A DNA stretch of 64,000 nt. It comes from a virus (lineage: Duplodnaviria; Heunggongvirae; Uroviricota; Caudoviricetes). Below the pieces are notes generated by a model. That model had not been told where the DNA came from. It saw only the letters and a program-made list of their open reading frames with translations, and ran no database searches. The stretch's first letter is position 1. Each line of letters starts with the position of its first letter. The stretch lies in the IMG/VR virus record IMGVR_UViG_2939521961_000011, one strand, 5' to 3'. The position numbers were made by a program, and so were the translations under genes. Of this stretch, positions 1 through 63,584 are shown in pieces.

Positions 1-70
1 CGCCCGCTCTCCAGCTCAACGCCAATTGCACGACGCCCCAGCGCCATTGCTGCTTTGACGCTACGGACAT

Positions 71-99
71 AAAAAAGCCAGCCACTGGGGGAGGCTGGC
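71..99 (-). terminator. Rho-independent terminator downstream of prophage A Q
   Basis: Stem gccagcc/ggctggc with a 10-nt loop, followed by a T-run on the minus strand. Confidence 0.4.
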
Positions 100-281
100 G
101 AAACTCGTAGAGCAAAAGTGTTGTTACACTAACTTCGTCACAGGGTTATCCTGCAATACTCAAAATACACAATATTTACAAAACTAATAGTATACAAGGC
201 GATCTTTAAGATTTTGTTATTAATTGTGGTCGCACCTTCCTTTCTGTGTACTTTCCGTATAGCTCACAGGATTCTGGGTAC

Positions 282-306
282 AAAAAAACCCGCGCATCGG
301 CGGGTT
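282..306 (-). terminator. tR'-like terminator of the late leader transcript (prophage A)
   Basis: GC stem cccgc/gcggg followed by a T7 run on the minus strand, about 60 nt downstream of a promoter-like element. Confidence 0.5.
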
Positions 307-352
307 CTTAAATCTTATCAACGGTAGACATACAAAGCCCATCATTGGGAAA

Positions 353-381
353 ATCTTATCCATATTTTTTGAAAAATGCAA
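353..381 (-). promoter_or_regulatory. Candidate late promoter pR' immediately downstream of Q (prophage A)
   Basis: Minus strand reads TTGCAT, 17-bp spacer, TAAGAT; position matches lambdoid pR' between Q and tR'. Confidence 0.35.
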
Positions 382-412
382 GCATCATGTCGTCATCTTC
401 GGCGAAAACCAT

Positions 413-1165
413 TTATCTTGTCACCTTTCTCAATTGTATCTCTGCATATGCTTCTTCCTGCCAGCACTTTGTAACCAGTTTATCAATGACATCTGCATAT
501 CCTTTGTACCACTGATAATCCGTCAGGTCTGGTACCAGCTTCTGGACATGAAGCCGCGCCAGTGTGGTTGGTAAACTGCTAAACCGGTTTCCATTGCAAC
601 GCCCACAAACCTTATAAACAGGCGTGCCATGAAGCCGGGTTCTTTTTTCATCCAGGACAATACCTTTACCCTTGCACCCTCTGCATGCTGTGCTGACTTC
701 TCCCTTACCATGACAATGCTGACATAGTTCCTTCACCCACTCTTCCTTAATAACAGATTCCCCGCTTCTGGAGTGTTTCACCACCTCGCGCAATACATTA
801 TGAAATCCAGTACCAGCACAATGCTCACAGCGAGCCTTACTTGCCGCAGACCTGGAATAATCAGCAAAGGCAAAATTCACAAGGTAAGGAATGATCTGTA
901 GCCGGGTTTCTTCACTCAATTTATTCAATGTCGGGTTATCCAGTGCCATCGCGTAATTGAGCAGACCTTCAATCGCAAACTGAGGATCCTGAACACCAAC
1001 TTTTGCCAGGAATAAAGCAAACCCAAGCGGTGCTTTTGACTGCACCATCCCCTGCGCAGCCATCACATCCGTAATTGTTAAACCACCAGAGCCTGTCGCC
1101 GGTGCGTCATCGCTCAGTTTTGGAGATTTCGGGGAGTAATATTTCGGTAAGGCTTCAAGGTTCAT
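413..1165 (-). CDS. Q: Late-gene antitermination protein Q (zinc-finger type)
   Basis: N-terminus LPKYYSPKSP shared with the second Q at 46741..47562; CxxC-GxG zinc-finger repeats; sits upstream of pR'/tR'. Start taken at the internal ATG with a GGAG RBS. Confidence 0.8.
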   Translation of the reverse strand: MNLEALPKYYSPKSPKLSDDAPATGSGGLTITDVMAAQGMVQSKAPLGFALFLAKVGVQDPQFAIEGLLNYAMALDNPTLNKLSEETRLQIIPYLVNFAFADYSRSAASKARCEHCAGTGFHNVLREVVKHSRSGESVIKEEWVKELCQHCHGKGEVSTACRGCKGKGIVLDEKRTRLHGTPVYKVCGRCNGNRFSSLPTTLARLHVQKLVPDLTDYQWYKGYADVIDKLVTKCWQEEAYAEIQLRKVTR

Positions 1166-1178
1166 GCTCGTTCTCCAC

Positions 1179-2228
1179 TTACGCCAGTACGCCAATTGCC
1201 AGCGCACGATCGATAAAACGAAATATCAGCTCCAGCTGAGAGCCATACTTCTCTTCAAATGCCACGGTATCCGCATGAAGCTCGTTGTGATGCTCCCGAC
1301 ACAGCGGTAGCGTGAAAATATCGTGAGATTTTGTCCCCATTCCGCCCTGACCATGACCAATCAGGTGATGGGGATCGTCGGCTGGCTTACCACAACACGC
1401 ACACGGCTGTGTCTTTACCCAGCGTGTGTATTTCTCATTTACCCAGCGGCGACGTTTAGGTCGTTTCATGAAGGATTCCGGAGACTCCGGATCAACGGCA
1501 ATGCTGACCACCGTCTTTTCCTGTGGTGGGTTCTGTTGCTGGTGGGTGTGAGACGGTAGCGCAATATTTTTTGTGCGCTGCTTCAGTATGCTGGTGGCGG
1601 TCTGTTCTCCCGGTATGATGTCGCTTTCACGGTATACGGAGCGGATTTTTTCCGCACGCAACCCCAGCGAACGACGTAATACCGCTTCCGGTAGCGCGTC
1701 CGCCACCTGATTGCGGACCGCCCACCAGGATAATTCAGCCAGCGATAATTCCCGTTCCTGTATGCCATTCATTGCGTGGCGGATGACGTCAATCATCCAT
1801 GCTGACAGGTTTTGTTGAGCAAGTTGCTCGAGTGATTCTGATGTCTGGTCGCGCAGCTGGTTGTCACAGTGCCAGCACAACACCATCGCGCCGGTACCAT
1901 AACGGTGAATGACTGTTTCGCTGTGATGATAATCGCCGTGTGGCCACTGGCAGGATTTCACGTGACGTAATAACCAGTCAGACAGTGCACCTGCACCACC
2001 TGCTGCACGAATAACCCGCTCATCGCTGAAAAATGGCAGTAATGTTTTATCCTCTGCCAGCGGCTGGCGAACGGCAGGAACGACTCCGGACGGCAGACCG
2101 CGCATGTTTTTCGGTTCCGGCTCCACCAATATTCTGCCGTTATGGAATACTGACATTGATTCACGGCCTGGCTTAACGATAACCAGACCGAGTTCCGGTA
2201 CCAGAACAGGTCGAAGTAATACCCGCAC
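1179..2228 (-). CDS. DUF968-family protein with C-terminal HNH-like motif (YdfU-like)
   Basis: 349 aa; C-terminal CACCGKP..HHL..LCREHHNELH motif; paralog at 47946..49049; standard position next to Q. GTG start 1 nt after the upstream stop. Confidence 0.7.
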   Translation of the reverse strand: MRVLLRPVLVPELGLVIVKPGRESMSVFHNGRILVEPEPKNMRGLPSGVVPAVRQPLAEDKTLLPFFSDERVIRAAGGAGALSDWLLRHVKSCQWPHGDYHHSETVIHRYGTGAMVLCWHCDNQLRDQTSESLEQLAQQNLSAWMIDVIRHAMNGIQERELSLAELSWWAVRNQVADALPEAVLRRSLGLRAEKIRSVYRESDIIPGEQTATSILKQRTKNIALPSHTHQQQNPPQEKTVVSIAVDPESPESFMKRPKRRRWVNEKYTRWVKTQPCACCGKPADDPHHLIGHGQGGMGTKSHDIFTLPLCREHHNELHADTVAFEEKYGSQLELIFRFIDRALAIGVLA

Positions 2229-2229
2229 G

Positions 2230-2517
2230 TTACCTCCAGATGCGCTGCTGGAATGTGCGGGACGGACGCGGTGGGCGTTCGGAATAAGGGAGCCTGGCGG
2301 AGATTATCCAGTGACGACGATCGAAGCTGAGATCTTTCTGAAACTCGTAACCACGCCTGCGGTAACACTGGATCAGCCATTCGGCCTGTTCTTCAGTGCA
2401 TAGGGGATGCTGGAACCAGTCGGTTTTAAATACGTGCGAACACCGTCCTTGCCTACTGGCAAGGGCGGCAGAATTGTGCAATCTGCTATCGTGCGCCATC
2501 GGGATCTCCGGTGGCAC
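2230..2517 (-). CDS. Small Rem-like prophage protein, function unknown
   Basis: 95-aa ORF coupled to the DUF968 gene; paralog at 48997..49269 in the same position. Confidence 0.45.
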   Translation of the reverse strand: MPPEIPMAHDSRLHNSAALASRQGRCSHVFKTDWFQHPLCTEEQAEWLIQCYRRRGYEFQKDLSFDRRHWIISARLPYSERPPRPSRTFQQRIWR

Positions 2518-2552
2518 GGTGTTTCTCAGCGACGGTTCAAGTCAGCCTGATT

Positions 2553-2825
2553 TTATAGCTGCTTCTGAATATCATCAACAGGTAATCCTGCCAACTCTCT
2601 TACCTCAGAAAGAAGAGAAAGGCTTACAACAACCTCATTACTTCGCATAACAAAACCACATTGAAAAGAACCATCACTGTTTCTGTAAACAACAACCGGG
2701 CGCGTGCTCTCATAAAACCCCGGGATCAAACTGGCTGGGATTTTCACAACACCTCCTGACGTAAAGGAAATGAAATGCATTATCGCTTCTCTCGGACTAT
2801 AACCATGAAAAGAGACGCATTTCAC
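2553..2825 (-). CDS. Hypothetical small protein
   Basis: 90-aa ORF with GTG start and weak RBS, divergent from the higB-like gene; no recognisable motif. Confidence 0.3.
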   Translation of the reverse strand: MKCVSFHGYSPREAIMHFISFTSGGVVKIPASLIPGFYESTRPVVVYRNSDGSFQCGFVMRSNEVVVSLSLLSEVRELAGLPVDDIQKQL

Positions 2826-3003
2826 TCAGTAAATCTGAGGATTTTATGCGCAAGAACAATGACTTTTTCTGTCTGCCGTTTATACAATCTGAATTACGTC
2901 TGTTTTTTGAACACCGATAAATCAGCAAGCATTCTCAAATAAAGATTGCCTCCATAGTCCACATGGTGTAACACTATGTGTTATATAAAATGCAGAGGCA
3001 GGT

Positions 3004-3375
3004 ATGCGAATTTTCAAAAACGCCTGGTTTGAACGTTTCGCTCGAAAACATCGGATTTCCGATAAATCGCTGCGCAAAATCGTGGAGCAGGCCGATAAGG
3101 GGATCATATCCGCAAATTTGGGTAGTGGTGTCATTAAACAAAGATTAGCCCGAAGTGGTGGCGGAAAATCAGGCGGTTACCGGACAATAATTTTTTACCG
3201 CGTTGCAGAAAAAGCCTTTTTCATCTACGCATACGCAAAGAATGAACGAGAGAATATCACTGCTATAGAGGAAAATGCTTTTCGAAAAGCCGCTCCCCAT
3301 GTCCTCAATCTTACTGATGAACAGCTGGCACAATTGATTCAACAAGGCCAGTTCACGGAGGTACCCAATGAGTAA
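3004..3375 (+). CDS. RelE-superfamily toxin, HigB-2-like
   Basis: GGGKSGGYR and IIFY..AY.KNE motifs typical of HigB-2/RelE-like toxins; overlaps the downstream HTH gene by 8 nt (toxin-first order). Confidence 0.7.
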   Translation: MRIFKNAWFERFARKHRISDKSLRKIVEQADKGIISANLGSGVIKQRLARSGGGKSGGYRTIIFYRVAEKAFFIYAYAKNERENITAIEENAFRKAAPHVLNLTDEQLAQLIQQGQFTEVPNE

Positions 3376-3685
3376 AAATTACCGCAGTGATGCACTTGCA
3401 TCTGTACATGAAATGATGGAGTCACTCCATGATATCGGTGCAATCACAAAACAAACTATGCGCGAATTCGATGAAACTTGTCTTCAGCCTGCGCCGGTAA
3501 TGTCTCCGGAAAGGATCCGTGCACTGCGAGAACGAGAGCATCTGTCTCAACCTGTTTTTGCCAGATACCTCAACGTCAGTAAAAACCTGATATCAGACTG
3601 GGAACGAGGAGTGAAACGCCCGGGAGGTGCAGCTCTTCGGCTTCTTTCAGTTGTCGAGAAAAACGGGATCCAGGTAATATCCTGA
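3368..3685 (+). CDS. HTH antitoxin, HigA-2-like
   Basis: 105 aa with a C-terminal helix-turn-helix region (LSQPVFARYLNVSKNLISDWERG), coupled to the upstream toxin. Confidence 0.7.
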   Translation: MSKNYRSDALASVHEMMESLHDIGAITKQTMREFDETCLQPAPVMSPERIRALREREHLSQPVFARYLNVSKNLISDWERGVKRPGGAALRLLSVVEKNGIQVIS

Positions 3686-3787
3686 TATTCTAATACAACA
3701 AAACCCGCCGAAGCAGGTTAAGTGCGGGTGCGTTGAGGATGCCTGACACATCAGAGGTGGCGAGGGATTTCTCCCTCGCCAGGTCTC

Positions 3788-3943
3788 TTACTCCTCAGGT
3801 TCGTAAGCTGTGAAGACAGCGACCTCCGTCTGGCCGGTTCGGATTCGTACCTCGCAGAGGTCTTTCCTCGTTACCAGTGCCGTCACTATGACGGTTAAAC
3901 AGATGACAATCAGGGCGATTAACATCGCCTTTTGCTGCTTCAT
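3788..3943 (-). CDS. hok: Hok-family type I toxin (HokD/RelF-like)
   Basis: 51 aa MKQQKAMLIALIVICLTVIVTALVTRKDLCEVRIRTGQTEVAVFTAYEPEE, the canonical Hok sequence; AAGGAG RBS. Confidence 0.9.
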   Translation of the reverse strand: MKQQKAMLIALIVICLTVIVTALVTRKDLCEVRIRTGQTEVAVFTAYEPEE

Positions 3944-4170
3944 AGCCTGCTTCTCCTTGCCTTTCGGCACGTAAGAGGCTAACCTACATGTGCAAAGCAT
4001 GAAATTGGCCTCAGATTAATGTTAAGCGTCCTGCAAGACGCGTAATGTTAACTGGGGCTTTTCTCTGTCTGCCTTACGGCGGCATGCCCGAGGCAGACAG
4101 CCTCAAGCACCCGCAGCAATTCTACTTAACTCTTCTTTCCCCGCAAATCATTTTATCCCCGATGGTAATG
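3944..4170. promoter_or_regulatory. hok leader and presumed Sok antisense-RNA region
   Basis: Conserved with the region upstream of the second hok (50011..50220); Hok loci carry an antisense Sok RNA and leader fold-back elements here. Confidence 0.4.
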
Positions 4171-4214
4171 TTCTCCCGATATGGGAATTCCCATATCAAG
4201 GTTAACTCAATCGG

Positions 4215-4766
4215 TTAAAGCTCCATTAATTTTCCGGCCAGTTCATCTCGTGGCATTACCAGCCATCCGCGCGATTTAAGCAAAGCCAGGGCTTCTTCAA
4301 CCGTCACCAGCTGGCCAGGCGCATAACTTCGGATGAAGGCGGTTTTATCGTCACGGATCGCCAGGTGAAAATCGATATTCATTTTTCCCATAGCCCGCTC
4401 TTTCTCGTACTGGTTGAAGTAACTGTCTTCGAGTTTTTCGAATACTTCCCACGCCTGATCGGTTTCGAGCATTTTTGCATGACGGGCTGCTCCGCGTTCT
4501 GTCCAGAGGATGAGAGTGCGGGTTTTGGGAGAAATTTTCACCTCATTTTGCGACTCGTTTAAAACTAGTCGCAAATTTTTGAGCTCATCACCAACAGCTT
4601 TAAAGAAGTGTTTTCCCTCAATAAATCGAGATTTATTTTCATGGTGATTCTGCTGTATACGGATTGCTTCTGTTCCGTAAAGGCGGGCGAGTAACTCAGT
4701 TGTGATTACAGGAATCTGGTTATAAGTGACAGGGGAAAGGTTTTTGACAGTAACTTGAGTCGTCAT
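4215..4766 (-). CDS. Phage antirepressor / Rha-KilA-type regulatory protein
   Basis: 183 aa with the N-terminal ELLARLYG...FIEGKHFF pattern of phage antirepressors; absent from the equivalent place in prophage B. Confidence 0.6.
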   Translation of the reverse strand: MTTQVTVKNLSPVTYNQIPVITTELLARLYGTEAIRIQQNHHENKSRFIEGKHFFKAVGDELKNLRLVLNESQNEVKISPKTRTLILWTERGAARHAKMLETDQAWEVFEKLEDSYFNQYEKERAMGKMNIDFHLAIRDDKTAFIRSYAPGQLVTVEEALALLKSRGWLVMPRDELAGKLMEL

Positions 4767-5037
4767 GATAACGCCCTCTGGTTGATGAATTTAACTATCA
4801 CCACCTTCAGGTCTCAATCATCAGGTGGCGAGACGTACAGGGTTGAGACTACCGGATCAACCAACCGGCCAGCCTTTCGGCTGCCCCATACGCCTCACCA
4901 TAATTCAGATGTGCGTGCGCATACGACAATAAAAAACACGCTCGCGGCGTGTGTCTGTCGCGGTTGAATATCCGGGGTCTCAATCCCGACGGTCAACTCG
5001 ACCGTGCGGTGAATATAGCCCCGGATTAGTAATTACG

Positions 5038-5121
5038 TCAACCCCAGCGGCAAATCGAATAAACCACCAGCGCTACCGCCATTGCAACTCCTGCCGTTAC
5101 GAATGCCTCAGGCCAGGTCAT
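5038..5121 (-). CDS. Conserved 27-aa hydrophobic small protein (MTWPEAFVTAGVAMAVALVVYSICRWG)
   Basis: ATG overlaps the upstream stop (ATGA); GAGGA RBS; near-identical copy at 50221..50304 differing mainly by synonymous changes. Confidence 0.5.
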   Translation of the reverse strand: MTWPEAFVTAGVAMAVALVVYSICRWG

Positions 5122-5303
5122 CGTAAACTATCCTCAGCGCCAATCAGTCCGTTTCGCTTCAGGCAGTCCATCGCTTTATACGGTAATTTGGCTGACAGGC
5201 GAAAATCACCCTGCAGCATCAGGCTTATTCCCTTATCCCGGGCTTTCGCTCTGACCGCTGCCTCGCTACGACCAATCAGACTGCCGATACTTTCGACAGT
5301 CAT
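5118..5303 (-). CDS. Small HTH-like phage protein
   Basis: HTH-like segment IGSLIGRSEAAVRAKARDKGIS; longer paralog at 51734..52015; start chosen to avoid overlap with the upstream gene. Confidence 0.4.
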   Translation of the reverse strand: MTVESIGSLIGRSEAAVRAKARDKGISLMLQGDFRLSAKLPYKAMDCLKRNGLIGAEDSLR

Positions 5304-5362
5304 CGTTCCCGCGCACTGCCGGAGTATCAGAATTTCAGCCCGGCACCACGTCTTCCACCCAC

Positions 5363-6124
5363 TCACCGCTGCTGTTCTCTGGTGGCGGTAATATCCCGGA
5401 GAATATCCCGGCACTTGTTCAGCTCCCGCAGCGCGGCGCAGACTCGCTCCCACTTCTGAACCTGACCTTTTGCCCGGCGCAGCTCGCGGTTAGCCACATG
5501 CAGCGATGGTAAAATCAGCCCATCCGGATGCTTTCTGGTGAACGACGGCTGTGACTGCACTGTGACCGCCACACTTTCCGTTTTTATTTCTTCCTGTGTT
5601 TCCGCTTCCCGGACTGGTAACGCAACACATGCTGGCTGAGGAAAGGCTTTACCATCGGTTTCCGCTACGGATGCAGCTTCCGGCTCTGCCGGTAAATCAG
5701 CGCCCGGTATGCAGTAACGAAATTTACCGTTCTGATTTACGCGTGCCAGGCGCCCCGTTGCTGTTACGACCGCCAACGTGGAAGCAACCTTGCGAATGCT
5801 AACACCGAACTTATCCGCCAGTTCCTCACACGTTTTAGCCCCATCCTGACAGATAAACTCAATCATCATGTCCGCGGTAACTTTTTGTTCGACCTCCCCG
5901 GTCAGCACATCCGGTACTTCAGACTGTGCTGGCTGTTCTTCGGTTACCCCGGATTCACCTTCACCAGCCAGAAACCAGGTGTGACCCGTTTTATCAACAA
6001 CGCCATTTTTTTTGAGTTCCCACAGTTCGTTGAGAACTTCTTCACGGCTGATATCAAGCCGCGCCGCCAGTTCAACAGAATTGGCTTTACCCATCGTTTT
6101 CAGTGCATGCAATACGGTTTCCAT
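5363..6124 (-). CDS. DUF1627-like phage protein with N-terminal winged-helix
   Basis: 253 aa, acidic linker, conserved C-terminus; paralog at 52048..52809; lies directly downstream of the DnaC-like gene. Confidence 0.65.
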
Positions 6125-6153
6125 TAAAACTTCCTCCGGATAAAAATTACTTC

Positions 6154-6894
6154 TCAGTTCCTGTGCTGGCTGACGTTCGGACGCCAGCTCTCCCAGTTAA
6201 ACGTCACCCAGCGACCACCGTTCATGGACATGCGGTCCATCACCCGCTCGCCGAGAAGTGTATTCATCGCTGCATGGTTAAGATTTGTCAGCATCCCCAC
6301 ACTGAGTAACGATGCCGTTCTGCGGTCAACAATCTGATTCAGCGTGACCTGCTCATTACGCGTATCCCGTTGCATGCCAATTTCATCCAGTACCAGCAGG
6401 TCAACGCCACACAATCCCTGCAAAAATTTTTCGCCCGAGTTTTTGTTGTCGTAGCTGCCATGTAACGCCAGCATCACATCCGCCACTGTTATCACAATCA
6501 CACTGCGACCTTTCGCCAGAAGGTGGTTGCCAATAGCCGCCGCCAGGTGGTTTTTTCCTGTGCCAGGCCTGCCACTGAAAACAAAATTCGTACAGCCGCC
6601 TTCCAGCTCTGCCGCAATGGATTTCGCCTGACTCAGGGCATGGCGCTGACCATCGTTCTGCACCCGGTAGTTACCGAACGTACACTTCCGGTGAAGCGGC
6701 TGGATACCGGAGCGGTTAATGATTTTTTCAACCCGCGTCTGATGATTCAGACGATTAACCTCCTCGCTTCGCTTACGCCCTTCAGCAAGCTGCCATTCCC
6801 GCCACTCCGTCACCGTACGGTACGGAGGGATTGCATCCTGCGGCACAAATCTGCTGACTCTTGCCAGAACACCACCTGACGTAATGTTTTTCAT
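6154..6894 (-). CDS. Replication protein, DnaC-like helicase loader (IstB-type AAA+ ATPase)
   Basis: Walker [12 protein letters not shown] and Walker B LLVLDEIG; follows the O-like gene. Confidence 0.85.
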
Positions 6895-6900
6895 GATGCG

Positions 6901-7866
6901 CTACCCCCTGAAACCCGGCGGAATTTCGGTATCCGGTTCAGAAATATGATTCACGCAACGCTGCGCGGGACCACGCCACAGTCGAATAACCAGTTCATCC
7001 CATTTCTCACGGAGTTTTTCCGGGCTCTTGATGTTTTTTATCCAGAACGGATCCCGTTGTGCCCGGCTGAACATTTCGCAAATTTGTCTGTGACTTCTTC
7101 CATCCAGCATCCGCATTGTGCGCACGTCATTGGCCCACGCCGTCCAGTTGGGCTCTTTCGGTCGCGTGATCTCACCATCGTCACTGGCAGCCTGTTCGTA
7201 CAGGTTTACAACCCGCCCCCAGATCCACTGCGCACATGTCAAATCCTCCCGGGTTCCCCACTGGCGTTTTTTCACGCTGAACACAACTGCATCAGGATGG
7301 CGGGTTAAAAACGCCTGTTCAGCCGTCAACTCGTCCGGTTGCGAAGCGTCCGGACAAGAGAGTTTTTTATTCTCTGTTGTATTCTCTGTTGTATTCTCTG
7401 TAGGATCATCGGGCCATTTTGACCTGATGACATTGGGCCGTTTTGAACCAATGGAACGTTTCATTTTGACCTCTTCCATCGTGTCATTTTGACCTGATGG
7501 AGTGGCGCATTTTGACCCGATGGATTCGTTCACTTTGCCATCATCTAAAAGCGCGCTATCGTAGTTAATTGTGTAAAAATTAGTCATATCACGCTTCGAT
7601 TTATTGAGCTTTTCGCTACGCAAAAGCCCCAGCGCTTTCAGACTTGCAAACGCACGCTTTAACGTTGACTCTGACCAGAACGGAAACTGTTCCAGCCATT
7701 GTTCCGTTGTGTTGTAAATCCAGCGAACGCCATCACATTCCATGCCGGAACTGGTATCCCTCAACCAGTAATGCAGTTGCTGCAACACAATGGCTTCGTT
7801 TAAACCAATCTTCATCGCCAGCTGTGTGTTTATAACCAGCGGGCGTTCAGCAAAAAGAAGGCTCAT
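6901..7866 (-). CDS. Replication initiator O-like protein
   Basis: C-terminal domain shared with the second copy; iterons lie inside the ORF; TENTTENTTEN coding repeat. ORF-track start is GTG at 7908; first ATG at 7866. Confidence 0.8.
   Translation of the reverse strand: MSLLFAERPLVINTQLAMKIGLNEAIVLQQLHYWLRDTSSGMECDGVRWIYNTTEQWLEQFPFWSESTLKRAFASLKALGLLRSEKLNKSKRDMTNFYTINYDSALLDDGKVNESIGSKCATPSGQNDTMEEVKMKRSIGSKRPNVIRSKWPDDPTENTTENTTENKKLSCPDASQPDELTAEQAFLTRHPDAVVFSVKKRQWGTREDLTCAQWIWGRVVNLYEQAASDDGEITRPKEPNWTAWANDVRTMRMLDGRSHRQICEMFSRAQRDPFWIKNIKSPEKLREKWDELVIRLWRGPAQRCVNHISEPDTEIPPGFRG
7411..7525. repeat. Replication-origin iterons inside the O-like gene
   Basis: Five copies of CATTTTGACC(T/C)GATGG-like repeats spaced 23-24 bp, followed by an AT-rich stretch; lambda ori has the same layout inside O. 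Confidence 0.6.
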
Positions 7867-8368
7867 AATTCCATCCGGCTTTTTGTTGGTACTGGTGACG
7901 ATAGGCACGCTTGAAAGCGATTGCTTTTTCTATAAGCTCGTCTGTCTCACGTTCCACAACAGCTGGATCTGCAAAAAGCAGCCCGGACTCCACCACATCG
8001 CCATATTCTTTGTTTAACCCGGCAATCATGTACGTAATGCTTTTTCCGTCAGTAATTTCGCGGTACAACCTGAAATCACTAATCCGGATAGCCTCCATAA
8101 TTGCCGGAATCAGCGCCGTGAATTTTTCACGCTTATCCCTGGTGTCGATAGCCTTCCAGCGTTCGAATATCTTCACCCGGTTAACGCCCAGTGCCCGTTG
8201 ATCAACCTCGCCATCATTAAACGTGATGCGTTGAACATCGATGTTCGGGCGTTCTTTCAGAGCCCAGAATGCTTCCGTGATTAATATCGTCGCCTGTTCC
8301 TGTGTCATTCCTGGTCGGCACACCCAGGCATCCAGAGCCTCACAAACCTGTTCAGGGGTGATTTTCAT
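7847..8368 (-). CDS. YdaT-family regulatory protein (cII-position gene)
   Basis: 173 aa sharing the MKI...W...K.F.RW..DT.D...PAI...YREI pattern with the 141-aa copy at 54568..54993; sits between cro-like and O-like genes. Confidence 0.55.
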   Translation of the reverse strand: MKITPEQVCEALDAWVCRPGMTQEQATILITEAFWALKERPNIDVQRITFNDGEVDQRALGVNRVKIFERWKAIDTRDKREKFTALIPAIMEAIRISDFRLYREITDGKSITYMIAGLNKEYGDVVESGLLFADPAVVERETDELIEKAIAFKRAYRHQYQQKAGWNYEPSFC

Positions 8369-8582
8369 TGTTCAACCGCCCCGCCCGCTTTGCCTTACGA
8401 TATTCGTCATAAACTTTGGGGTCGTACTGAAGTTCCCCGCCGGATGCCTCTTGCAGGCGCATCGCGCGACCTTCAGGTACTAGCTCCCCTTTCCAGCTAT
8501 AAAGCGAAGCCAAACGAATACCAGCAGCTTGTGCAAGTTTTGTTTTTGAACCGAAATACAAAAGTGCGTCAGTTTTAAGCAT
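8352..8582 (-). CDS. dicC: Cro-like repressor, DicC-like
   Basis: 76 aa small HTH protein divergent from the repressor gene; sequence matches my recollection of Qin DicC. Confidence 0.75.
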   Translation of the reverse strand: MLKTDALLYFGSKTKLAQAAGIRLASLYSWKGELVPEGRAMRLQEASGGELQYDPKVYDEYRKAKRAGRLNNENHP

Positions 8583-8597
8583 TTAAAGCACCTTGAT

Positions 8598-8615
8598 TGT
8601 TAGCCATGACTAACA
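8598..8615. promoter_or_regulatory. Operator palindrome in the dicC/dicA divergent promoter region
   Basis: TGTTAGCCATGACTAACA inverted repeat; related half-sites TTAGTCATGGC recur at about 9111 and 9147. Confidence 0.5.
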
Positions 8616-8665
8616 AAATAGATGTTAACAAAAACATAGTCAATAAGATTTAGCATTAGCTAACT

Positions 8666-9073
8666 ATGGATACAAAAAATTTAACCATTGGCGAACGCAT
8701 TAGATATCGCCGAAAAAACCTCAAATACACCCAAAGGTCTCTTGCTAAAGTCCTGAAAATTTCTCACGTATCGGTTTCACAATGGGAGCGGGATGATAGC
8801 GAACCTACAGGAAAGAATCTTTTTGCCCTCAGCAAAGTACTGCAGTGCTCGCCAACATGGATTCTATTTGGCGATGAAGACAAGCAGCCATCACCACCTA
8901 TTGAGGAGCCAGTTGCTCTATCCCCCAAAGAACATGAGCTCCTTGAGCTTTTTAATGCATTGCCTGAATCAGAACAGGATGCTCAGCTCACCGAGATGCG
9001 CGCCCGAGTAAAAAATTTCAACAAACTCTTTGAAGAGTTATTAAAAGCCCGTCAACGAACAAACAAAAGATAA
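8666..9073 (+). CDS. dicA: Immunity repressor, DicA-like (HTH_XRE)
   Basis: 135 aa; HTH GERIRYRRKNLKYTQRSLAKVLKISHVSVSQWER; divergent from the cro-like gene with operators between. Confidence 0.85.
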   Translation: MDTKNLTIGERIRYRRKNLKYTQRSLAKVLKISHVSVSQWERDDSEPTGKNLFALSKVLQCSPTWILFGDEDKQPSPPIEEPVALSPKEHELLELFNALPESEQDAQLTEMRARVKNFNKLFEELLKARQRTNKR

Positions 9074-34727: not shown

Positions 34728-38408
<3,681 letters not shown>

Positions 38409-38434
<26 letters not shown>

Positions 38435-38954
38435 TCAGCAACCCCGGTATCAGTTCATCCAGCGCGGCTGCTTTGTTCATGGCTTTGATAATATCCCGTT
38501 TCAGGAAATCAACATGTCGGTTTTCCAGTTCCGGAAAACGCCGCTGTACTGAGAGAGGGATCCCGTCAAGAATACTGGCAATTTCACCTGCGATCCGTGA
38601 CAGCACGAAAGTACAGAATGCGGTTTCCACCACTTCTGCGGAGTCTCTGGCATTCTTCAGCTCCTGGGCGTCAGCCTGCGCACGCGTAAGTCGATGGCGT
38701 TCGTACTCAATAGTCCCAGGCTGGAGATCTGCCTCGCTGGCAGCCCTGTAATCCTCAACCTCTTTACGGAGTTTTTCATTTTCGATATCAGCTTCCCTCT
38801 GCGCATACCACTGAATTGCCGTGGCGGTATCAAATACAGATTCAACGCCCTTACCACCTCCGGAGACGCAAGGGAGCCCCTGAGACTGCCAGCGTTCAAT
38901 CGTTCGCGGATCCACGTTGAAAATTTCGGCAAGTTTCTTTTTATTAACCTTCAT
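38409..38954 (-). CDS. nu1: Terminase small subunit Nu1
   Basis: 181 aa; [10 protein letters not shown]...[55 protein letters not shown] matches lambda Nu1. Confidence 0.95.
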
Positions 38955-39094
38955 GAAACAGTCTCACAACAAATACAGGATCCGACATGAAAGTGCCCGA
39001 AAATGACTTTTTCAGGCGTTTTCATGTCGGACCTTTACGGATTCGATATTAGAAAAAACAAATAGTTATGTTCGAGAAGTACCGACATGATTTT

Positions 39095-39141
39095 CCCCGG
39101 AAAATTTTCATAAATAGCGAAAACCCGCGAGGTCGCCGCCC
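39095..39141 (-). other. cos site (cosN cohesive-end sequence plus adjacent cosB-like sequence)
   Basis: Minus strand reads GGGCGGCGACCTCGCGGGTTTTCGCTATTTA, matching the left end of lambda including the 12-nt GGGCGGCGACCT; lies just upstream of Nu1. Confidence 0.85.
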
Positions 39142-39340
39142 CGTAACCTGTCGGATCGCCGGAAAGGACCCGCAAAATGATAATAATTATCATCTACATG
39201 TCACAACGTGCATCTACGCCATCAAACCACGTCAAATAATCAATTATGACGCAGGTATCGTATTAATTGATCTGCGTCAACTTAACGTAAAAACAACTTC
39301 AGACAATACAAATCAGCGACACTGAATACGGGGCAACCTC

Positions 39341-39565
39341 ATGTCAACGAAGAACAGAACCCGCAGAACAACAACCCGCAACATCCGCTTTCCTAACCAA
39401 ATGATTGAACAAATTAACATCGCTCTTGACCTGAAAGGTTCAGGTAATTTTTCAGCGTGGGTTATTGAAGCCTGCAGAAGAAGATTAATTAATGAAAAAT
39501 ATTCTCAATTTGTACCCAACAAAGACAAACACGACCAGAGCACCTGTTCAGACAGGTTTACTTAA
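39341..39565 (+). CDS. Putative ribbon-helix-helix (Arc/CopG-type) DNA-binding protein
   Basis: 74 aa with basic N-terminus and RHH-like core IRFPNQMIEQINIALDLKGSGNFSAWVIEACRRRL; an inverted repeat TGACGCAG...CTGCGTCA lies upstream. Confidence 0.45.
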   Translation: MSTKNRTRRTTTRNIRFPNQMIEQINIALDLKGSGNFSAWVIEACRRRLINEKYSQFVPNKDKHDQSTCSDRFT

Positions 39566-39646
39566 ACGACTTATATATGACACAAAAAGCGACCACTAAA
39601 GTCGCTTTTTCTTATGGTAACAGGCAATAACTCTCTCAGATATTTT

Positions 39647-39961
39647 TTAGCATTTTTTTGACCGCGCGTTTCCGGACGTATTCTGTTCTCCTGTCCCTTT
39701 ATATCGTCGGAATACCCGCCGCTCTTCAAATCCCATTCCCAACTCAGAATGTAGTCTGTTGACCGCTTGTTTTATTTCGGTCAGGTTCACCGGTGAAACC
39801 GGAGTCCGGCGCGCCTTACGCAAACACTCTGCTCGTTTCTGTGCCGCCACTTTTCTTTTCTGGTCATCACTTAGCTGTACCATCACTTTTGCCCATCGTT
39901 CAGCTGCTCTCCGGTACAGTCCTTTTTTCTCCAGACATTCTGCCACGTGATCATGTAGCAT
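39647..39961 (-). CDS. PerC-family transcriptional regulator-like protein (Pch-like)
   Basis: 104 aa with HDHVAECLEKKGLYRRAAERW, which I recall as the PerC-family signature; AT-rich 450-bp upstream region; moron position between cos and lysis genes. Confidence 0.55.
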   Translation of the reverse strand: MLHDHVAECLEKKGLYRRAAERWAKVMVQLSDDQKRKVAAQKRAECLRKARRTPVSPVNLTEIKQAVNRLHSELGMGFEERRVFRRYKGTGEQNTSGNARSKKC

Positions 39962-40426
39962 AAGTGACCTCCGATTATCTACAGACTGCCATCCTGAATT
40001 TACCTTCCCTTAATGAAATAACAATAAAAAACAAACCACGCAAAAACAATAAAACAACACACAAAAAAAACTAAATAATAAACAAAAATAATCACCTTAT
40101 TTTATTATTTTTTGAGGGAGCAATTACTGAACAAAAAACGCTGACTATATACTCAAAACCAAACAACTATTCTGCCAATCAGGTATCATGGCAACACACG
40201 GAATTACCGTGTTTTTGCCTTCTCTGCCCATACAATACGGGCATATACTTCATTCTCTATTGTAATATTTCTATCCATGTGCCCCACTCCATTTACCTGT
40301 AAATAATATTCAAAATATTTATCACAGAAATCGTTTTTGGCCATGAACTGAGCACACTATAAAGTCCGGAACTGACTCTTTGTTAAATTACCTTAACGTT
40401 ACCAGTAACACCTTCATAACAAAACA

Positions 40427-40894
40427 TCACGGTATACACTGGGTACGGATATATTCCTGTGCTCCTTCCAGTTGCTTCTGCATTGCCATCAGCCGTTCTC
40501 TGAGGATGAAATAATCCCGTTCAGCGGCTTCTGCCAGTCGGGGACCGGTTGCATTATCCACGCCGGAGGTGATGGGGGCTTTACGCAAGGAGCCTGGACA
40601 GTTGGCGTTGATGCGCAGGCGCTTACGACCAGCGGCAACATCAGCACGCAGAGTTTCATTTTCAGCTCTCGCATCGGCTAATTCCCTCGAGTATCTGGCA
40701 TCAAGTGCAGCGACATCACGCTGGCGTATCTGCATATCAGTAATTGTCGCGTTCGCCAGCTCCAGCTCACTGGCTTTTTTATCGCGCTGCTCTTTGTAGA
40801 TGATGGCGTGATCACGGTAATGATTCAGCCCCAGACTAAGCGCACCACAGGCCACCAGCAGGACAATGATAACCACGCACAGAACACGGTTCAT
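40427..40894 (-). CDS. Rz: Spanin inner-membrane subunit Rz
   Basis: N-terminal TM helix then coiled coil; contains an embedded Rz1 ORF in the +1 frame. Confidence 0.85.
   Translation of the reverse strand: MNRVLCVVIIVLLVACGALSLGLNHYRDHAIIYKEQRDKKASELELANATITDMQIRQRDVAALDARYSRELADARAENETLRADVAAGRKRLRINANCPGSLRKAPITSGVDNATGPRLAEAAERDYFILRERLMAMQKQLEGAQEYIRTQCIP
40489..40674 (-). CDS. Rz1: Spanin outer-membrane lipoprotein Rz1 (embedded in Rz)
   Basis: 61 aa with lipobox VVSAC and proline-rich CVKPPSPPAWIMQPVPDWQKPLNGIIS, as in lambda Rz1. Confidence 0.8.
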   Translation of the reverse strand: MRELKMKLCVLMLPLVVSACASTPTVQAPCVKPPSPPAWIMQPVPDWQKPLNGIISSSENG

Positions 40895-41225
40895 ATCACC
40901 ACCAACGGATTGCCCAGACCAGAACAGCAATGGCCACAATACGAATGGCAAAAGCTGCCGCTCTTGTTAAATCCAGACTGGCGTCTCCACTTCAATGCCT
41001 TTCATAATGGACAACCTCAGAAAGAATCTTTTATACTTCCTCACAGGGAAAGTACCTCCCTACCCATAATTTCTCCCTTGCCTTACTCAAGGTCAGAAAA
41101 CACAAAACCCCGCTTGCTGCCAACAAACGGGTTTTTTACTTTTATTCACTTAGGTTTTACCAGTTTTCAGGATTTCGTGTTATCCACCCGCGTTGGCCAA
41201 CGTCATTTTTCAGGAAAATATTCTG

Positions 41226-41759
41226 CTATCTGTCGATGTCCCAGCACGCCAGCGCGCTCTCCTGGTCACGCCGTGAGACCTGACCGTAGCAATTATTTGA
41301 ACGGATACGGCAGTCTCTGCCACCGTCCTTAATCCACCAGCGAATCGCCTCACAGGCACCTTTTCGATCGCCTGCATTAATTCGTTTATAAAACGTCGAC
41401 GGGAAGCACTTACCGGGGCCAATGTTGTACGGACAGAATGACGCGATCCCCGCTTTCTGGGGTTCGGTCAGCGGCACCCGGATGTTTTTCTCCACCCATG
41501 CCAGCGCCTTATCACGTTCAATAGCGTTAACCTGGTCGCATTTTTCCTTCGTCAGTTTCATGCCAGGAATAACAGGCTTACCATCCACCCGGGTGGCTCC
41601 ACGGCAGATGGTCCAGATACCCGCACCATCACGGTATGCCGTGGTGTGGTTACCTTCCTTTTCATCCAGAAACTGGTCGAGGATTTCAGGCGCAGACGCC
41701 CCTGCACCAATCAGCGCCAGAACGGCAGCCGACAGGCCGTATTTGATTTTTGCGTTCAT
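41226..41759 (-). CDS. R: SAR endolysin (T4-lysozyme-like, GH24)
   Basis: N-terminal signal-arrest-release helix YGLSAAVLALIGAGASA, then E...D...T catalytic region EGNHTTAYRDGAGIWT. Confidence 0.85.
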   Translation of the reverse strand: MNAKIKYGLSAAVLALIGAGASAPEILDQFLDEKEGNHTTAYRDGAGIWTICRGATRVDGKPVIPGMKLTKEKCDQVNAIERDKALAWVEKNIRVPLTEPQKAGIASFCPYNIGPGKCFPSTFYKRINAGDRKGACEAIRWWIKDGGRDCRIRSNNCYGQVSRRDQESALACWDIDR

Positions 41760-41889
41760 GGATATTTATCAGGATTTATCGGTTCCGAATCCCTGGATAT
41801 GTTAAGCCTTCACCCCACCAGTGGTGGGCACTGGCGGGTTCTTAATTTCCCCGGATGATCGTGGATTACATTCCACCAGGAGATTACTT

Positions 41890-45570: not shown

Positions 45571-45784
45571 TATTCCTCCCGGCCGGGATAGTGTATTAAA
45601 TCAGATATGGAGTGGGCTGTAGTCCGGAAGCCTGAATGACACACGGGGACTACAGCCCAAGAAATGAAAAAAGGCCACGCAGTTGCGCAGCCTGATAAAC
45701 CCTGGTTAAAATCCACACGATAACAACACAACAATATCAGTATCTCATGCTATTGCCCGAACCCATTCGGGCATTTTTTACCCA

Positions 45785-45816
45785 TAAAAAAGCCCCTCCG
45801 GAGAGGGGCATGTTTG
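45785..45816. terminator. Bidirectional rho-independent terminator
   Basis: gcccctc cgga gaggggc hairpin flanked by an A-run and a T-rich stretch. Confidence 0.4.
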
Positions 45817-46140
45817 CATGCACATTCTTTTTCTTGCATGGTGCCGGGTGCCTCCCGGTGAATTCAGTATCAGCACCTGAATCCGCGATTATCACATATA
45901 CCTGGTTGCTGATTGCCCCTCCGCACAGGGGGATTCACCATGCAGTAGTATTTTTAATAAACAGTAAACAAAAAAATCAAGCATTATGCAGGCTGTTTCT
46001 TTTTATCACCGGCCACAGCAATACCACAATGCCGCAGACCAGCACCCCATCCGCCAGCACCGACATGATTCTGCTGGTGAAATCCACCATCACCACCAGA
46101 AACAGCAGGAGTGCAGCCACAGCCAGGCGCAGTTTTACCG

Positions 46141-47945: not shown

Positions 47946-49049
47946 TTACCCGAGCACGCCGGTTGCAAAGGCGTGATCAAGAAAACGAAAAATTAAATCA
48001 ACCTGGGAACCATGCTTTTCTTCGAACGCCAGCGGATCCGCATGAAGCTCGTTGTGATGCTCCCGACACAGCGGTAGCGTGAAAATATCGTGGGATTTTG
48101 TTCCCATTCCACCCTGACCATGACCAATCAGATGATGAGGATCGTCCGCTGGCTTACCACAACACGCACACGGCTGTGTCTTTACCCAGCGTGTGTATTT
48201 CTCATTTACCCAGCGGCGACGTTTAGGTCGTTTCATGAAGGATTCCGGAGACTCCGGATCAACGGCAATGCTGACCACCGTCTTTTCCTGTGGTGGGTTC
48301 TGTTGCTGGTGGGTGTGAGGCGGTAGCGCAATATTTTTTGTGCGCTGCTTCAGTATGCTGGTGGCGGTCTGTTCTCCCGGTATGATGTCGCTTTCACGGT
48401 ATACGGAGCGGATTTTTTCCGCCGGTAATCCCAGAGAGCGACGCGATACTGCCTCAGGTAATGCGTCCACCACCTGATTGCAGACTGCCCACCAGGATAA
48501 TTCAGCCAGCGATAATTCCCGCTCCTGCGTGCCATTCATTACATGGCGTATGACGTCAATCATCCAGGCTGTCAGATTTTGTTGAGTAAGTTGCTCAAGT
48601 GATTCGGAGGTCTGGTCGCGCAGCTGGTTGTCGCAGTGCCAGCACAACACCATTGCGCCGGTACCATAACGGTGAATGACGGTTTCACTGTGGTGATAAT
48701 CACCGTGTGGCCACTGGCAGGATTTAACATGGCGCAGTAACCAGTCAGACAATGCGCCAGCGCCACCAGCAGCACGAATCACTCGTTCGTCGCTGAAAAA
48801 TGGCAGTAATGATTTATCTTCCGCCAGCGGCTGGCGAACAGCAGGAACCGCTCCAGATGGCAGCGCCCGCATGTTTTTCGGTTCCGGCTCCACCAGCACC
48901 CTGCCGCGATGAAAAACTGGCAATGATTCACGACCGGGCTTAAGGACCACCAGCCCGAGTTCCGGAACCAGAACAGGTCGAAGTAATACCCGCACATTAC
49001 CTCCAGACGCGCTGACGGTAGCAGGCATGTGTCCGTGGCAGATGTGCAC
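47946..49049 (-). CDS. DUF968-family protein with C-terminal HNH-like motif (YdfU-like)
   Basis: 367 aa, highly similar to 1179..2228 including CACCGKP..HHL..LCREHHNELH. Confidence 0.7.
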   Translation of the reverse strand: MHICHGHMPATVSASGGNVRVLLRPVLVPELGLVVLKPGRESLPVFHRGRVLVEPEPKNMRALPSGAVPAVRQPLAEDKSLLPFFSDERVIRAAGGAGALSDWLLRHVKSCQWPHGDYHHSETVIHRYGTGAMVLCWHCDNQLRDQTSESLEQLTQQNLTAWMIDVIRHVMNGTQERELSLAELSWWAVCNQVVDALPEAVSRRSLGLPAEKIRSVYRESDIIPGEQTATSILKQRTKNIALPPHTHQQQNPPQEKTVVSIAVDPESPESFMKRPKRRRWVNEKYTRWVKTQPCACCGKPADDPHHLIGHGQGGMGTKSHDIFTLPLCREHHNELHADPLAFEEKHGSQVDLIFRFLDHAFATGVLG

Positions 49050-49854: not shown

Positions 49855-50010
49855 TTACTTCTCAGATTCGTAGTCTACGAAGACAGCGACCTCCGTCTGA
49901 CCGGTTCGGATTCGCACCTCGCAGAGGTCTTTCCTCGTTACCAGTGCCGTCACTATGACGGTTAAACAGATGACGATCAGGGCGATTAACATCGCCTTTT
50001 GCTGCTTCAT
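49855..50010 (-). CDS. hok: Hok-family type I toxin
   Basis: 51 aa MKQQKAMLIALIVICLTVIVTALVTRKDLCEVRIRTGQTEVAVFVDYESEK; conserved leader/Sok region upstream. Confidence 0.9.
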   Translation of the reverse strand: MKQQKAMLIALIVICLTVIVTALVTRKDLCEVRIRTGQTEVAVFVDYESEK

Positions 50011-50220
50011 AGCCTGCTTCTCCTTGCCTTTCGGCACGTAAGAGGCTAACCTACATGTGTTCAGCATGGATTGAGCCTCAGATTAATGTTAAGCGTCTTG
50101 CAGGACGCGTAATGTTAACTGGGGCTTTTCTCTATCTGCCGTTGGTGTTCATGCCCGAGGCAGATAGCCTCAAGCACCCGCTGCAATTCTACTTAACTAT
50201 CCTTTTCCCGCAAACCGTTT

Positions 50221-61449: not shown

Positions 61450-61656
61450 ATGACAAAAATTATGAGATATGACGATGTTAAACCATGTCCGTTTTGTGGT
61501 TGTCCATCTGTTACAGTGAAAGCAATTTCAGGATATTACCGGGCAAAATGCAACGGATGCGAATCCCGAACTGGCTATGGTGGAAGTGAAAAAGAAGCAC
61601 TCGAAAGATGGAATAAACGAACTACTGGAAATAATAATGGAGGTGTTCATGTATAA
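61450..61656 (+). CDS. ralR: Restriction alleviation protein Lar (RalR)
   Basis: MTKIMRYDDVKPCPFCGCPSVTVKAISGYYRAKCNGCESRTGYGG... with Cys4 zinc ribbon, as Rac Lar. Confidence 0.8.
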   Translation: MTKIMRYDDVKPCPFCGCPSVTVKAISGYYRAKCNGCESRTGYGGSEKEALERWNKRTTGNNNGGVHV

Positions 61657-61837
61657 AATAACTGCCACTATTGAAAAAGAAGGTGGCACTCCTACTAACT
61701 GGACAAGATATTCAAAATCTAAATTAACGAAATCAGAATGCGAAAAAATGCTCTCAGGGAAAAAAGAAGCAGGCGTGTCCAGAGAGCAGAAAGTAAAGCT
61801 GATAAATTTTAATTGCGAGAAACTTCTGTCCTCGTGA
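61637..61837 (+). CDS. ydaC: YdaC-like small protein
   Basis: Small ORF overlapping the lar 3' end, in the Rac order lar-ydaC-xis-int; start uncertain. Confidence 0.5.
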   Translation: MEVFMYKITATIEKEGGTPTNWTRYSKSKLTKSECEKMLSGKKEAGVSREQKVKLINFNCEKLLSS

Positions 61838-63306: not shown

Positions 63307-63584
63307 TATAACCAAAAAAGACCGGAATACAGAAATTCGAGTAAATTTCGAGTAATTTCGGGGAGACGTTTGCAACTAATTGATTTTAAATACAATTAAA
63401 AAAAGACCGAATACGATTCCTGTATTCGGTCCAGGGAAATGGCTCTTGGGAGAGAGCCGTGCGCTAAAAGTTGGCATTAATGCAGGCTTAGTTGCCTTGC
63501 CCTTTAAGAATAGATGACGACGCCAGGTTTTCCAGTTTGCGTGCAAAATGGTCAATAAAAAGCGTGGTGGTCATCAGCTGAAAT

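Follow-up and report, generated by a model that had tools for sequence, protein, structure and literature searches.

The systems closest to the locus described here are the pch genes of EHEC and perC of EPEC. EPEC PerC, which is encoded on pEAF in the perABC operon, belongs to the same Pfam family as Pch and also activates the LEE1 promoter. It is needed for LEE expression under particular conditions only, whereas Pch is essential in EHEC (PMC4764244). Iyoda and Watanabe (2004, as cited) reported that pchA, pchB and pchC are needed for full expression of the LEE and for adherence, and that the effects of the multiple pch genes are additive. PchABC are conserved in O26, O111 and O103 EHEC (PMC2323221). 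PchA raises expression of ler::lacZ approximately 6-fold in K-12 (PMC5931665). Pch activates LEE1 only under repression by H-NS/StpA/Hha/YdgT, lowers H-NS occupancy at LEE1 (both in vivo and in reconstituted complexes) and binds AT-rich sites of approximately 450 bp, many of them genome-wide; pch mutants lose LEE expression in non-inducing conditions (PMC4764244). Ler, which is LEE-encoded and H-NS-like, resembles Pch in its mode of action: both are small proteins of horizontal origin that lift the silencing of AT-rich virulence promoters by H-NS. The two differ in that Ler shares the DNA-binding domain of H-NS, whereas no homology links Pch to any known DNA-binding protein (PMC4764244).

Expression of pchA is itself regulated at several levels. 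Its transcription is under butyrate/Lrp and LrhA control (PMC4456613, PMC7279287), the native promoter, PpchA, responding to Lrp/butyrate (PMC7279287). At the level of translation, the message is blocked by an SD/anti-SD structure, which the sRNA DicF opens (reviewed in PMC7873438 and PMC7769764). Group-1 pch transcripts go up after SOS induction (PMC5931665, PMC6265319). In PA20 it was pchC, and not pchA, that showed this response, and read counts after induction were lowest for pchA (PMC5931665).

At the level of the phage, the locus can be compared with lambda and with the K-12 prophages DLP12 and Qin. The lysogenic-conversion cargo bor/ybcV/ybcW of lambda and DLP12 occupies exactly the same slot, between Rz and ylcI, as pchA does here; these genes are unrelated to pchA, and relative to the late operon bor runs antisense and pchA sense. 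The slot in Qin holds the stretch from cspI to ydfO. On its cos side, YlcI (DLP12), YnfO (Qin) and the rightmost lambda ORF share the position, the orientation and the upstream DNA of the corresponding gene in our sequence.

The window (the whole stretch of viral DNA that was analysed, 64,000 nucleotides in length) includes, at 36.5-41.8 kb, the cos region of a lambdoid prophage in reverse orientation. The features concerned are the following.

10591-10642, plus strand: DicF sRNA gene (Rfam RF00039, 75 bits against a gathering score of 48)
36509-38434, minus strand: terminase large subunit (ORF)
38409-38954, minus strand: Nu1-type small subunit (ORF)
39130-39141, minus strand: cosN (AGGTCGCCGCCC; the reverse complement of GGGCGGCGACCT), an exact match that is unique in the window
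39239-39279, no strand: a pair of perfect 8-nt inverted repeats, interleaved with each other, 62-102 bp ahead of the start codon of the ylcI-like gene
39341-39565, plus strand: ylcI-like gene of the YlcI/YnfO family (DUF3950), a 74-aa ORF convergent with pchA
39476-40448, no strand: cargo ('moron') segment, 973 bp, 39% G+C
39584-39610, both strands: bidirectional intrinsic terminator hairpin (AAAAAGCGAC-N7-GTCGCTTTTT, 10/10 complementary)
39647-39961, minus strand: pchA (group-1 pch, PerC family), from a 104-aa ORF, the Pfam PerC match and identity to Sakai
39962-40426, minus strand: AT-rich regulatory region and leader of pchA, 465 bp, 33.3% G+C
40427-40894, minus strand: Rz spanin (ORF; RefSeq 'lysis protein', WP_012817784.1)
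40489-40674, minus strand: Rz1, embedded in Rz
41226-41759, minus strand: endolysin, R (ORF)

The 104-aa ORF had been called PerC-like in the initial annotation, and the HMM search agrees with this. It matches Pfam PF06069 (PerC) with an E value of 3.8e-44 and a score of 149.3 bits (cut-off 22.6), residues 1-89 corresponding to profile positions 1-89 of 90, that is, to the full domain. The protein is identical to PchA (ECs_1091) of E. coli O157:H7 Sakai at 104/104 residues and the CDS at 315/315 nt; the upstream region differs from the Sakai copy at a single position (464/465 identical). Three CDS positions, 16, 172 and 183, tell pchA, pchB and pchC apart (PMC5931665), and in the window copy these are G, G and C, which are the pchA-specific bases. 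Given these identities and diagnostic bases, gene and regulatory region together represent the pchA allele, and nothing in the sequence contradicts this identification. RefSeq labels the gene 'PerC family transcriptional regulator' (WP_001303878.1). PchA is a basic protein (25 K+R versus 12 D+E) and its CDS has a G+C content of 49.2%. A PDB sequence search with PchA gave no related solved structure, and a search of the 64-kb window for a second PerC-family gene found none. Plasmid-borne genes of the PerC family, a set that is expected to include the EPEC-type perC, are 40-48% identical to the window PchA over approximately 84% of its length. EPEC PerC belongs to a plasmid operon with perA and perB, in contrast to the window pchA, which is prophage cargo.

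Sakai pchA (paralogues PchB and PchC) is found in the same lambdoid-prophage context as the window copy, and the 2.3 kb at window positions 39484-41770, with pchA, Rz and R, share 98.2% identity with Sakai Sp4. The Sp4 segment is cut by an IS629 at the position equivalent to 39484 and is inverted relative to the head genes, whereas the window locus is intact on the cos side, with the ylcI-like gene, cos and the terminase genes following directly. The hosts also differ: O26-like EHEC for the window copy and O157 for Sakai Sp4.

Our reading of the locus as a whole, to which we give a probability of about 95%, is that a group-1 pchA gene, an activator of the LEE, is carried as cargo in the variable Rz-to-ylcI slot of a lambdoid prophage whose host is an O26-like EHEC. 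The present analysis established the identity, family and distribution of the gene, the anatomy of the locus and the limits of the cargo; LEE1 activation, H-NS displacement and the control exerted by Lrp, LrhA and DicF are taken from the literature on the identical allele.

The cosN flanks align with the right end of lambda. Rz is the last lysis gene of the late operon upstream of pchA, which shares its strand with S, R and Rz; a scan of the interval between Rz and pch for a minus-strand terminator-like site found none. The terminator common to the ylcI-like gene and pchA, the hairpin at 39584-39610, folds with -12.3 kcal/mol on the plus strand (z -2.9) and -14.7 kcal/mol on the minus strand (z -3.4), and a U-run follows the stem on both strands. 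Because it is stable both ways and has a U-run in each direction, this hairpin can terminate both convergent genes.

Some other elements of the cos-to-lysis region were observed along the way. Three copies of an TCCGACATGA-type element lie between cosN and the start of Nu1 (38981-39031 and 39077-39090); two of them form a 23-nt inverted repeat that is 87% complementary, and this hairpin gave rise to a spurious sub-threshold match to MIR8001 in Rfam. The elements are probably the R sites of cosB, of a non-lambda Nu1 type. The gap of approximately 330 bp between the endolysin and Rz genes (40895-41225) contains a frameshifted remnant ORF, which is annotated as a pseudogene in RM10386 and as a small ORF, ECs_1094, in Sakai.

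The limits of the cargo were defined by a blastn comparison with DLP12 and Qin. Homology covers 38400-39475 and resumes at 40449, so the cargo extends from 39476 to 40448. It includes the 3' end of the ylcI-like gene, the terminator, pchA and, as far as the 3' end of Rz, the AT-rich upstream region. The left junction thus falls inside the ylcI-like gene, just past its conserved domain, and consequently the tail of the encoded protein from residue 50 is specific to the pch cargo. The proposal that pch is a moron holds: the segment is absent from lambda, DLP12 and Qin, where other cargo occupies the slot, it differs from its surroundings in base composition (39% G+C) and it carries its own terminator. 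A promoter belonging to the moron is suggested by the published behaviour of PpchA (PMC7279287) and by a weak consensus match described below. The initial annotation had placed both pch and its small neighbour as insertions between cos and the lysis genes. Their position between cosN (39130-39141) and Rz (which ends at 40427) is correct, but insertion applies to pch and its flanks and not to the small gene, as discussed below. In E. coli E2865, a prophage that is otherwise 99.85% identical to window positions 43078-64000 has a Rha-family regulator where the window has pchA, between ylcI and Rz (L010, 245-1831), which shows that exchange at this slot was recent.

An AT-rich stretch of approximately 450 bp had been noted upstream of pchA, and this is indeed present, as the 465 bp at 33.3% G+C, with a minimum of 28.5% over 200 bp, compared with 50.8% for the window and approximately 53% for the terminase genes. 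The SD (GGAGG) sits 7-11 nt ahead of the pchA ATG. A weak sigma-70-like site at 40194-40166 (minus strand) matches 9 of the 12 consensus positions, and the promoter scan of the region found no excess of such sites over shuffled sequences. Silencing of this region by H-NS may be expected from its base composition. The high-affinity H-NS motif (TCGATAAATT) is not enriched there, with one match with two mismatches at 40380, and in the window as a whole the count is barely above that of shuffles (72 observed versus 57.5). Our literature search found no direct report of H-NS binding or silencing at the pchA upstream region; that virulence genes on phage elements are bound by H-NS is stated in general terms only (PMC4764244).

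Within the AT-rich region there is also a 46-aa ORF on the same strand as pchA (40204-40344, minus), the end of which is overlapped by a plus-strand terminator-like hairpin (40196-40212). Neither this ORF nor an 85-aa ORF at 39068-39325 (plus) has a family match or a RefSeq annotation, and for this reason both were taken as non-coding. A scan of 38800-41300 against Rfam gave sub-threshold chance matches only, with no known sRNA in the pch region.

The gene for DicF, the sRNA that opens the pchA message, is present in the window itself, in the dicC-dicB region of a neighbouring prophage piece, 29 kb from pchA. RNAduplex gives -48.9 kcal/mol for DicF with the pch CDS from +48 to +105, compared with a mean of -40.5 (sd 3.4) for shuffled mRNA, while other window segments reach -57 kcal/mol. 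In view of the shuffled mean and of the stronger pairing with other segments, this calculation neither confirms nor refutes the published interaction.

The small gene beside pch had been described as encoding an RHH-type protein. The 74-aa ORF is certainly there. It matches Pfam DUF3950 (PF13132) with an E value of 1.8e-18 and 66.6 bits (cut-off 25), and the NCBIfam model YlcI_YnfO_N (NF041551) with 34.6 bits (cut-off 30). Window positions 39300-39475 are 94.9% identical in nucleotide sequence to 48169-48344 of lambda (J02459). Lambda imm21, DLP12 and Qin have the same first 49 aa except for residues 30-31, with divergent tails, and the 200 bp from cosN to the ATG are nearly invariant between the window, lambda, DLP12 and Qin. 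As it is near-identical in lambda imm21, DLP12 and Qin, the ylcI-like gene belongs to the lambda backbone; it is neither part of the moron nor a partner of pch.

The family is a small one, with 109 representatives at E <= 0.001 among 1.84 billion proteins. The first homologue search gave near-identical sequences only, many on contigs of approximately 3.5 kb; an exhaustive search reached relatives at 40-55% identity. The 25-sequence alignment used for modelling includes relatives with 32-55% identity. With this alignment AlphaFold gave a mean pLDDT of 67.5 (67-83 in the core blocks) and a model consisting of an extended segment (residues 11-18), a helix (19-32) and a second helix (37-55); the strand is not called in the monomer. 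The single-sequence model has the same helices, but a pLDDT of 56 is too poor to be of use. Foldseek with the better model gave no significant match, PDB sequence and profile searches returned nothing relevant, and none of the RHH models in Pfam matched the 74-aa protein, RHH_6 appearing in one distant relative at an E value of 0.092. On the predicted fold, the N-terminal domain (residues ~11-55) is likely to be a ribbon-helix-helix. The RHH assignment is plausible but weakly supported.

The inverted repeat reported upstream of the small gene proved to be two interleaved perfect 8-nt repeats: ATCAATTA (39239-39246) with TAATTGAT (39264-39271), and TGACGCAG (39247-39254) with CTGCGTCA (39272-39279). 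These are modestly above chance: for a 199-nt stretch, Markov-1 random sequences contain a mean of 0.11 such repeats, and two or more in 2% of trials. Their arms differ at one position only from lambda, DLP12 and Qin, within a stretch that is cos-proximal and strongly conserved. They are candidate operator half-sites for an RHH dimer. A more speculative and rather unlikely extension of this is that YlcI/DUF3950, the uncharacterised rightmost ORF of lambda-like phages, may be an RHH protein that recognises the interleaved palindromes between cos and its own start and acts on cos-proximal events (packaging termination, transcription antisense to the late operon and here, perhaps, the convergent pchA transcript), with the 3' end of its gene serving as a recombination anchor for the exchange of cargo (pch, bor, rha).

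We also noted a distant DUF3950 relative of 129 aa (P0192), in which DUF3950 (residues 21-48) is followed by the N-terminal part of Terminase_2, the Pfam model of the small terminase subunit (residues 77-126, E value 1.7e-6). This may hint at a DNA-packaging link for cos-adjacent DUF3950 proteins; it could also be a fusion produced by gene calling.

The pchA gene is present in 673 of 5426 complete E. coli genomes, and 688 RefSeq records are annotated as PerC family regulator. The matches across these 673 genomes have at least 99% identity in all but one. Genomes that carry pch have a median of 3 copies and a maximum of 5; the contribution of an individual pchA may therefore be small. The whole cos-ylcI-pch-Rz arrangement occurs in 649 genomes of the complete E. 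coli set. Those that best match the window are O26 EHEC, from which a LEE is inferred for the host genome, the LEE itself lying outside the 64-kb window.

The window is a composite of lambdoid prophage parts (~1-15400, 15419-45563 and 43078-64000). A DicB/DicF-type prophage contributes its Q-to-integrase part at 1-14441, which is 99.99% identical to RM10386; 15419-45563 matches the nleC-tail-head-cos-pch-lysis part of the same RM10386 prophage; and 43078-64000, which ends at RyeA/SdsR, corresponds to the integrase and early region of the E2865 yebY prophage. The early region and integrase of one prophage (1-14441) are joined to a second prophage, which has its end at yebY/RyeA. The appearance is that of prophages in tandem or of a recombinant, and the collection contains no complete E. 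coli genome that matches over the full length of the window. Collinearity of the entire window with O26 RM10386, which is a 100% match over 38900-40500, was considered and rejected as it fails outside ~15.4-45.5 kb, and RM10386 annotations were applied only where the alignment supports them.

Several further observations concern the composite. The pch prophage borders, at its DinI/nleC cargo end, on an integrase end (~14.1-15.4 kb). Its tail-fibre end has an intact nleC (16175-17161, minus), which encodes a T3SS effector zinc metalloprotease of 329 aa; with nleC and pchA on one prophage, regulator and effector travel together. The anti-sRNA AgvB (45718-45779, plus; RF02702, 96.5 bits) lies downstream of the Q region of the pch prophage and is adjoined by STnc100 (45780-45969, minus; RF02076, 147.8 bits). 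The RalA antitoxin RNA is found at 61655-61833 (minus), SraC/RyeA with SdsR/RyeB at the chromosomal junction (63394-63538, plus), and two sok antitoxin RNAs at 3938-4112 (minus) and 50005-50179 (minus), one in each prophage early region.

Other explanations of the locus can be considered. Since pchA follows Rz immediately and in sense orientation, no terminator-like site was found in the interval, and the slot belongs to the late transcription unit, which continues across cos, the gene might be above all a late gene of the phage. Read-through from pR' on induction would express it, and it would serve the phage, for instance as a counter-silencer of H-NS on AT-rich DNA of phage or host in lytic growth, with LEE activation in the lysogen as a secondary, co-opted effect. 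The rise of group-1 pch transcripts on SOS induction (PMC5931665, PMC6265319) and the many AT-rich sites bound by Pch genome-wide (PMC4764244) would suit such a role. We nevertheless think it quite unlikely: the gene has its own 465-bp region, which by published accounts answers to butyrate/Lrp, LrhA and DicF/oxygen without induction, LEE expression is lost in pch mutants that have not been induced (PMC4764244), and many pch prophages are defective (for example, Sakai Sp4, disrupted by IS629 and ISEc8). The reading of the window copy as a passenger, redundant or silent, that does not measurably affect virulence regulation in its strain is very unlikely. The CDS of this copy is intact and identical to the functional Sakai allele, its SD is intact and its upstream region is conserved at 464/465 positions, and the additive effects attributed to multiple pch genes (Iyoda and Watanabe 2004, as cited) also speak against redundancy, even though genomes carry a median of three near-identical copies and the PA20 pchA copy gave the lowest read counts after induction (PMC5931665).

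We regard as highly improbable a two-gene module of the RHH-like and PerC-like proteins, in which the small protein would control pch, for instance as a repressor acting at the repeats or by way of convergent transcription. Lambda, DLP12 and Qin, all of which are without pch, have the ylcI-like gene and its repeats in nearly unchanged form, and the repeats lie upstream of ylcI and not of pch. In Sp4, the ylcI-like gene has been cut off by IS629, yet pchA is functional, which argues against a regulatory pair. What can be said for a module is that the two genes are adjacent and convergent with a common terminator, that the C-terminal tail of YlcI is specific to the pch cargo and that K-12 RNA-seq shows overlapping transcription of the convergent ybcW-ylcI pair (PMC12288877).

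Returning to pchA as a cargo-borne LEE activator, the course of events may be pictured as follows. In the lysogen, pchA would be transcribed from its own promoter within the 465-bp AT-rich upstream region. Lrp/butyrate and LrhA would control this transcription and DicF would relieve the SD/anti-SD hold on translation. The small basic PchA protein would then bind at the LEE1 promoter, as well as at further virulence loci, where the DNA is AT-rich, and Ler would next turn on the LEE type III secretion system and the prophage-borne effectors. If the prophage is induced, Q-antiterminated late transcription should read through into pchA as well. Such read-through is suggested by the sense orientation of pchA after Rz and by the lack of a terminator in the interval scanned, and the reported SOS rise of group-1 pch transcripts fits with it.

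The suggested link between this cargo and LEE regulation is established for the identical allele (PMC5931665, PMC4764244). The role of pchA has been known since 2004, and both the allele and its regulatory region match the one that was studied; the feature is thus already known. Our analysis makes three modest descriptive additions: the cargo boundaries, the placement in the Rz-to-ylcI slot and weak structural support for an RHH fold in DUF3950. These leave the current understanding of the locus unchanged, in which pchA is a master switch in EHEC, coupling prophage content to LEE type III secretion and its effectors.
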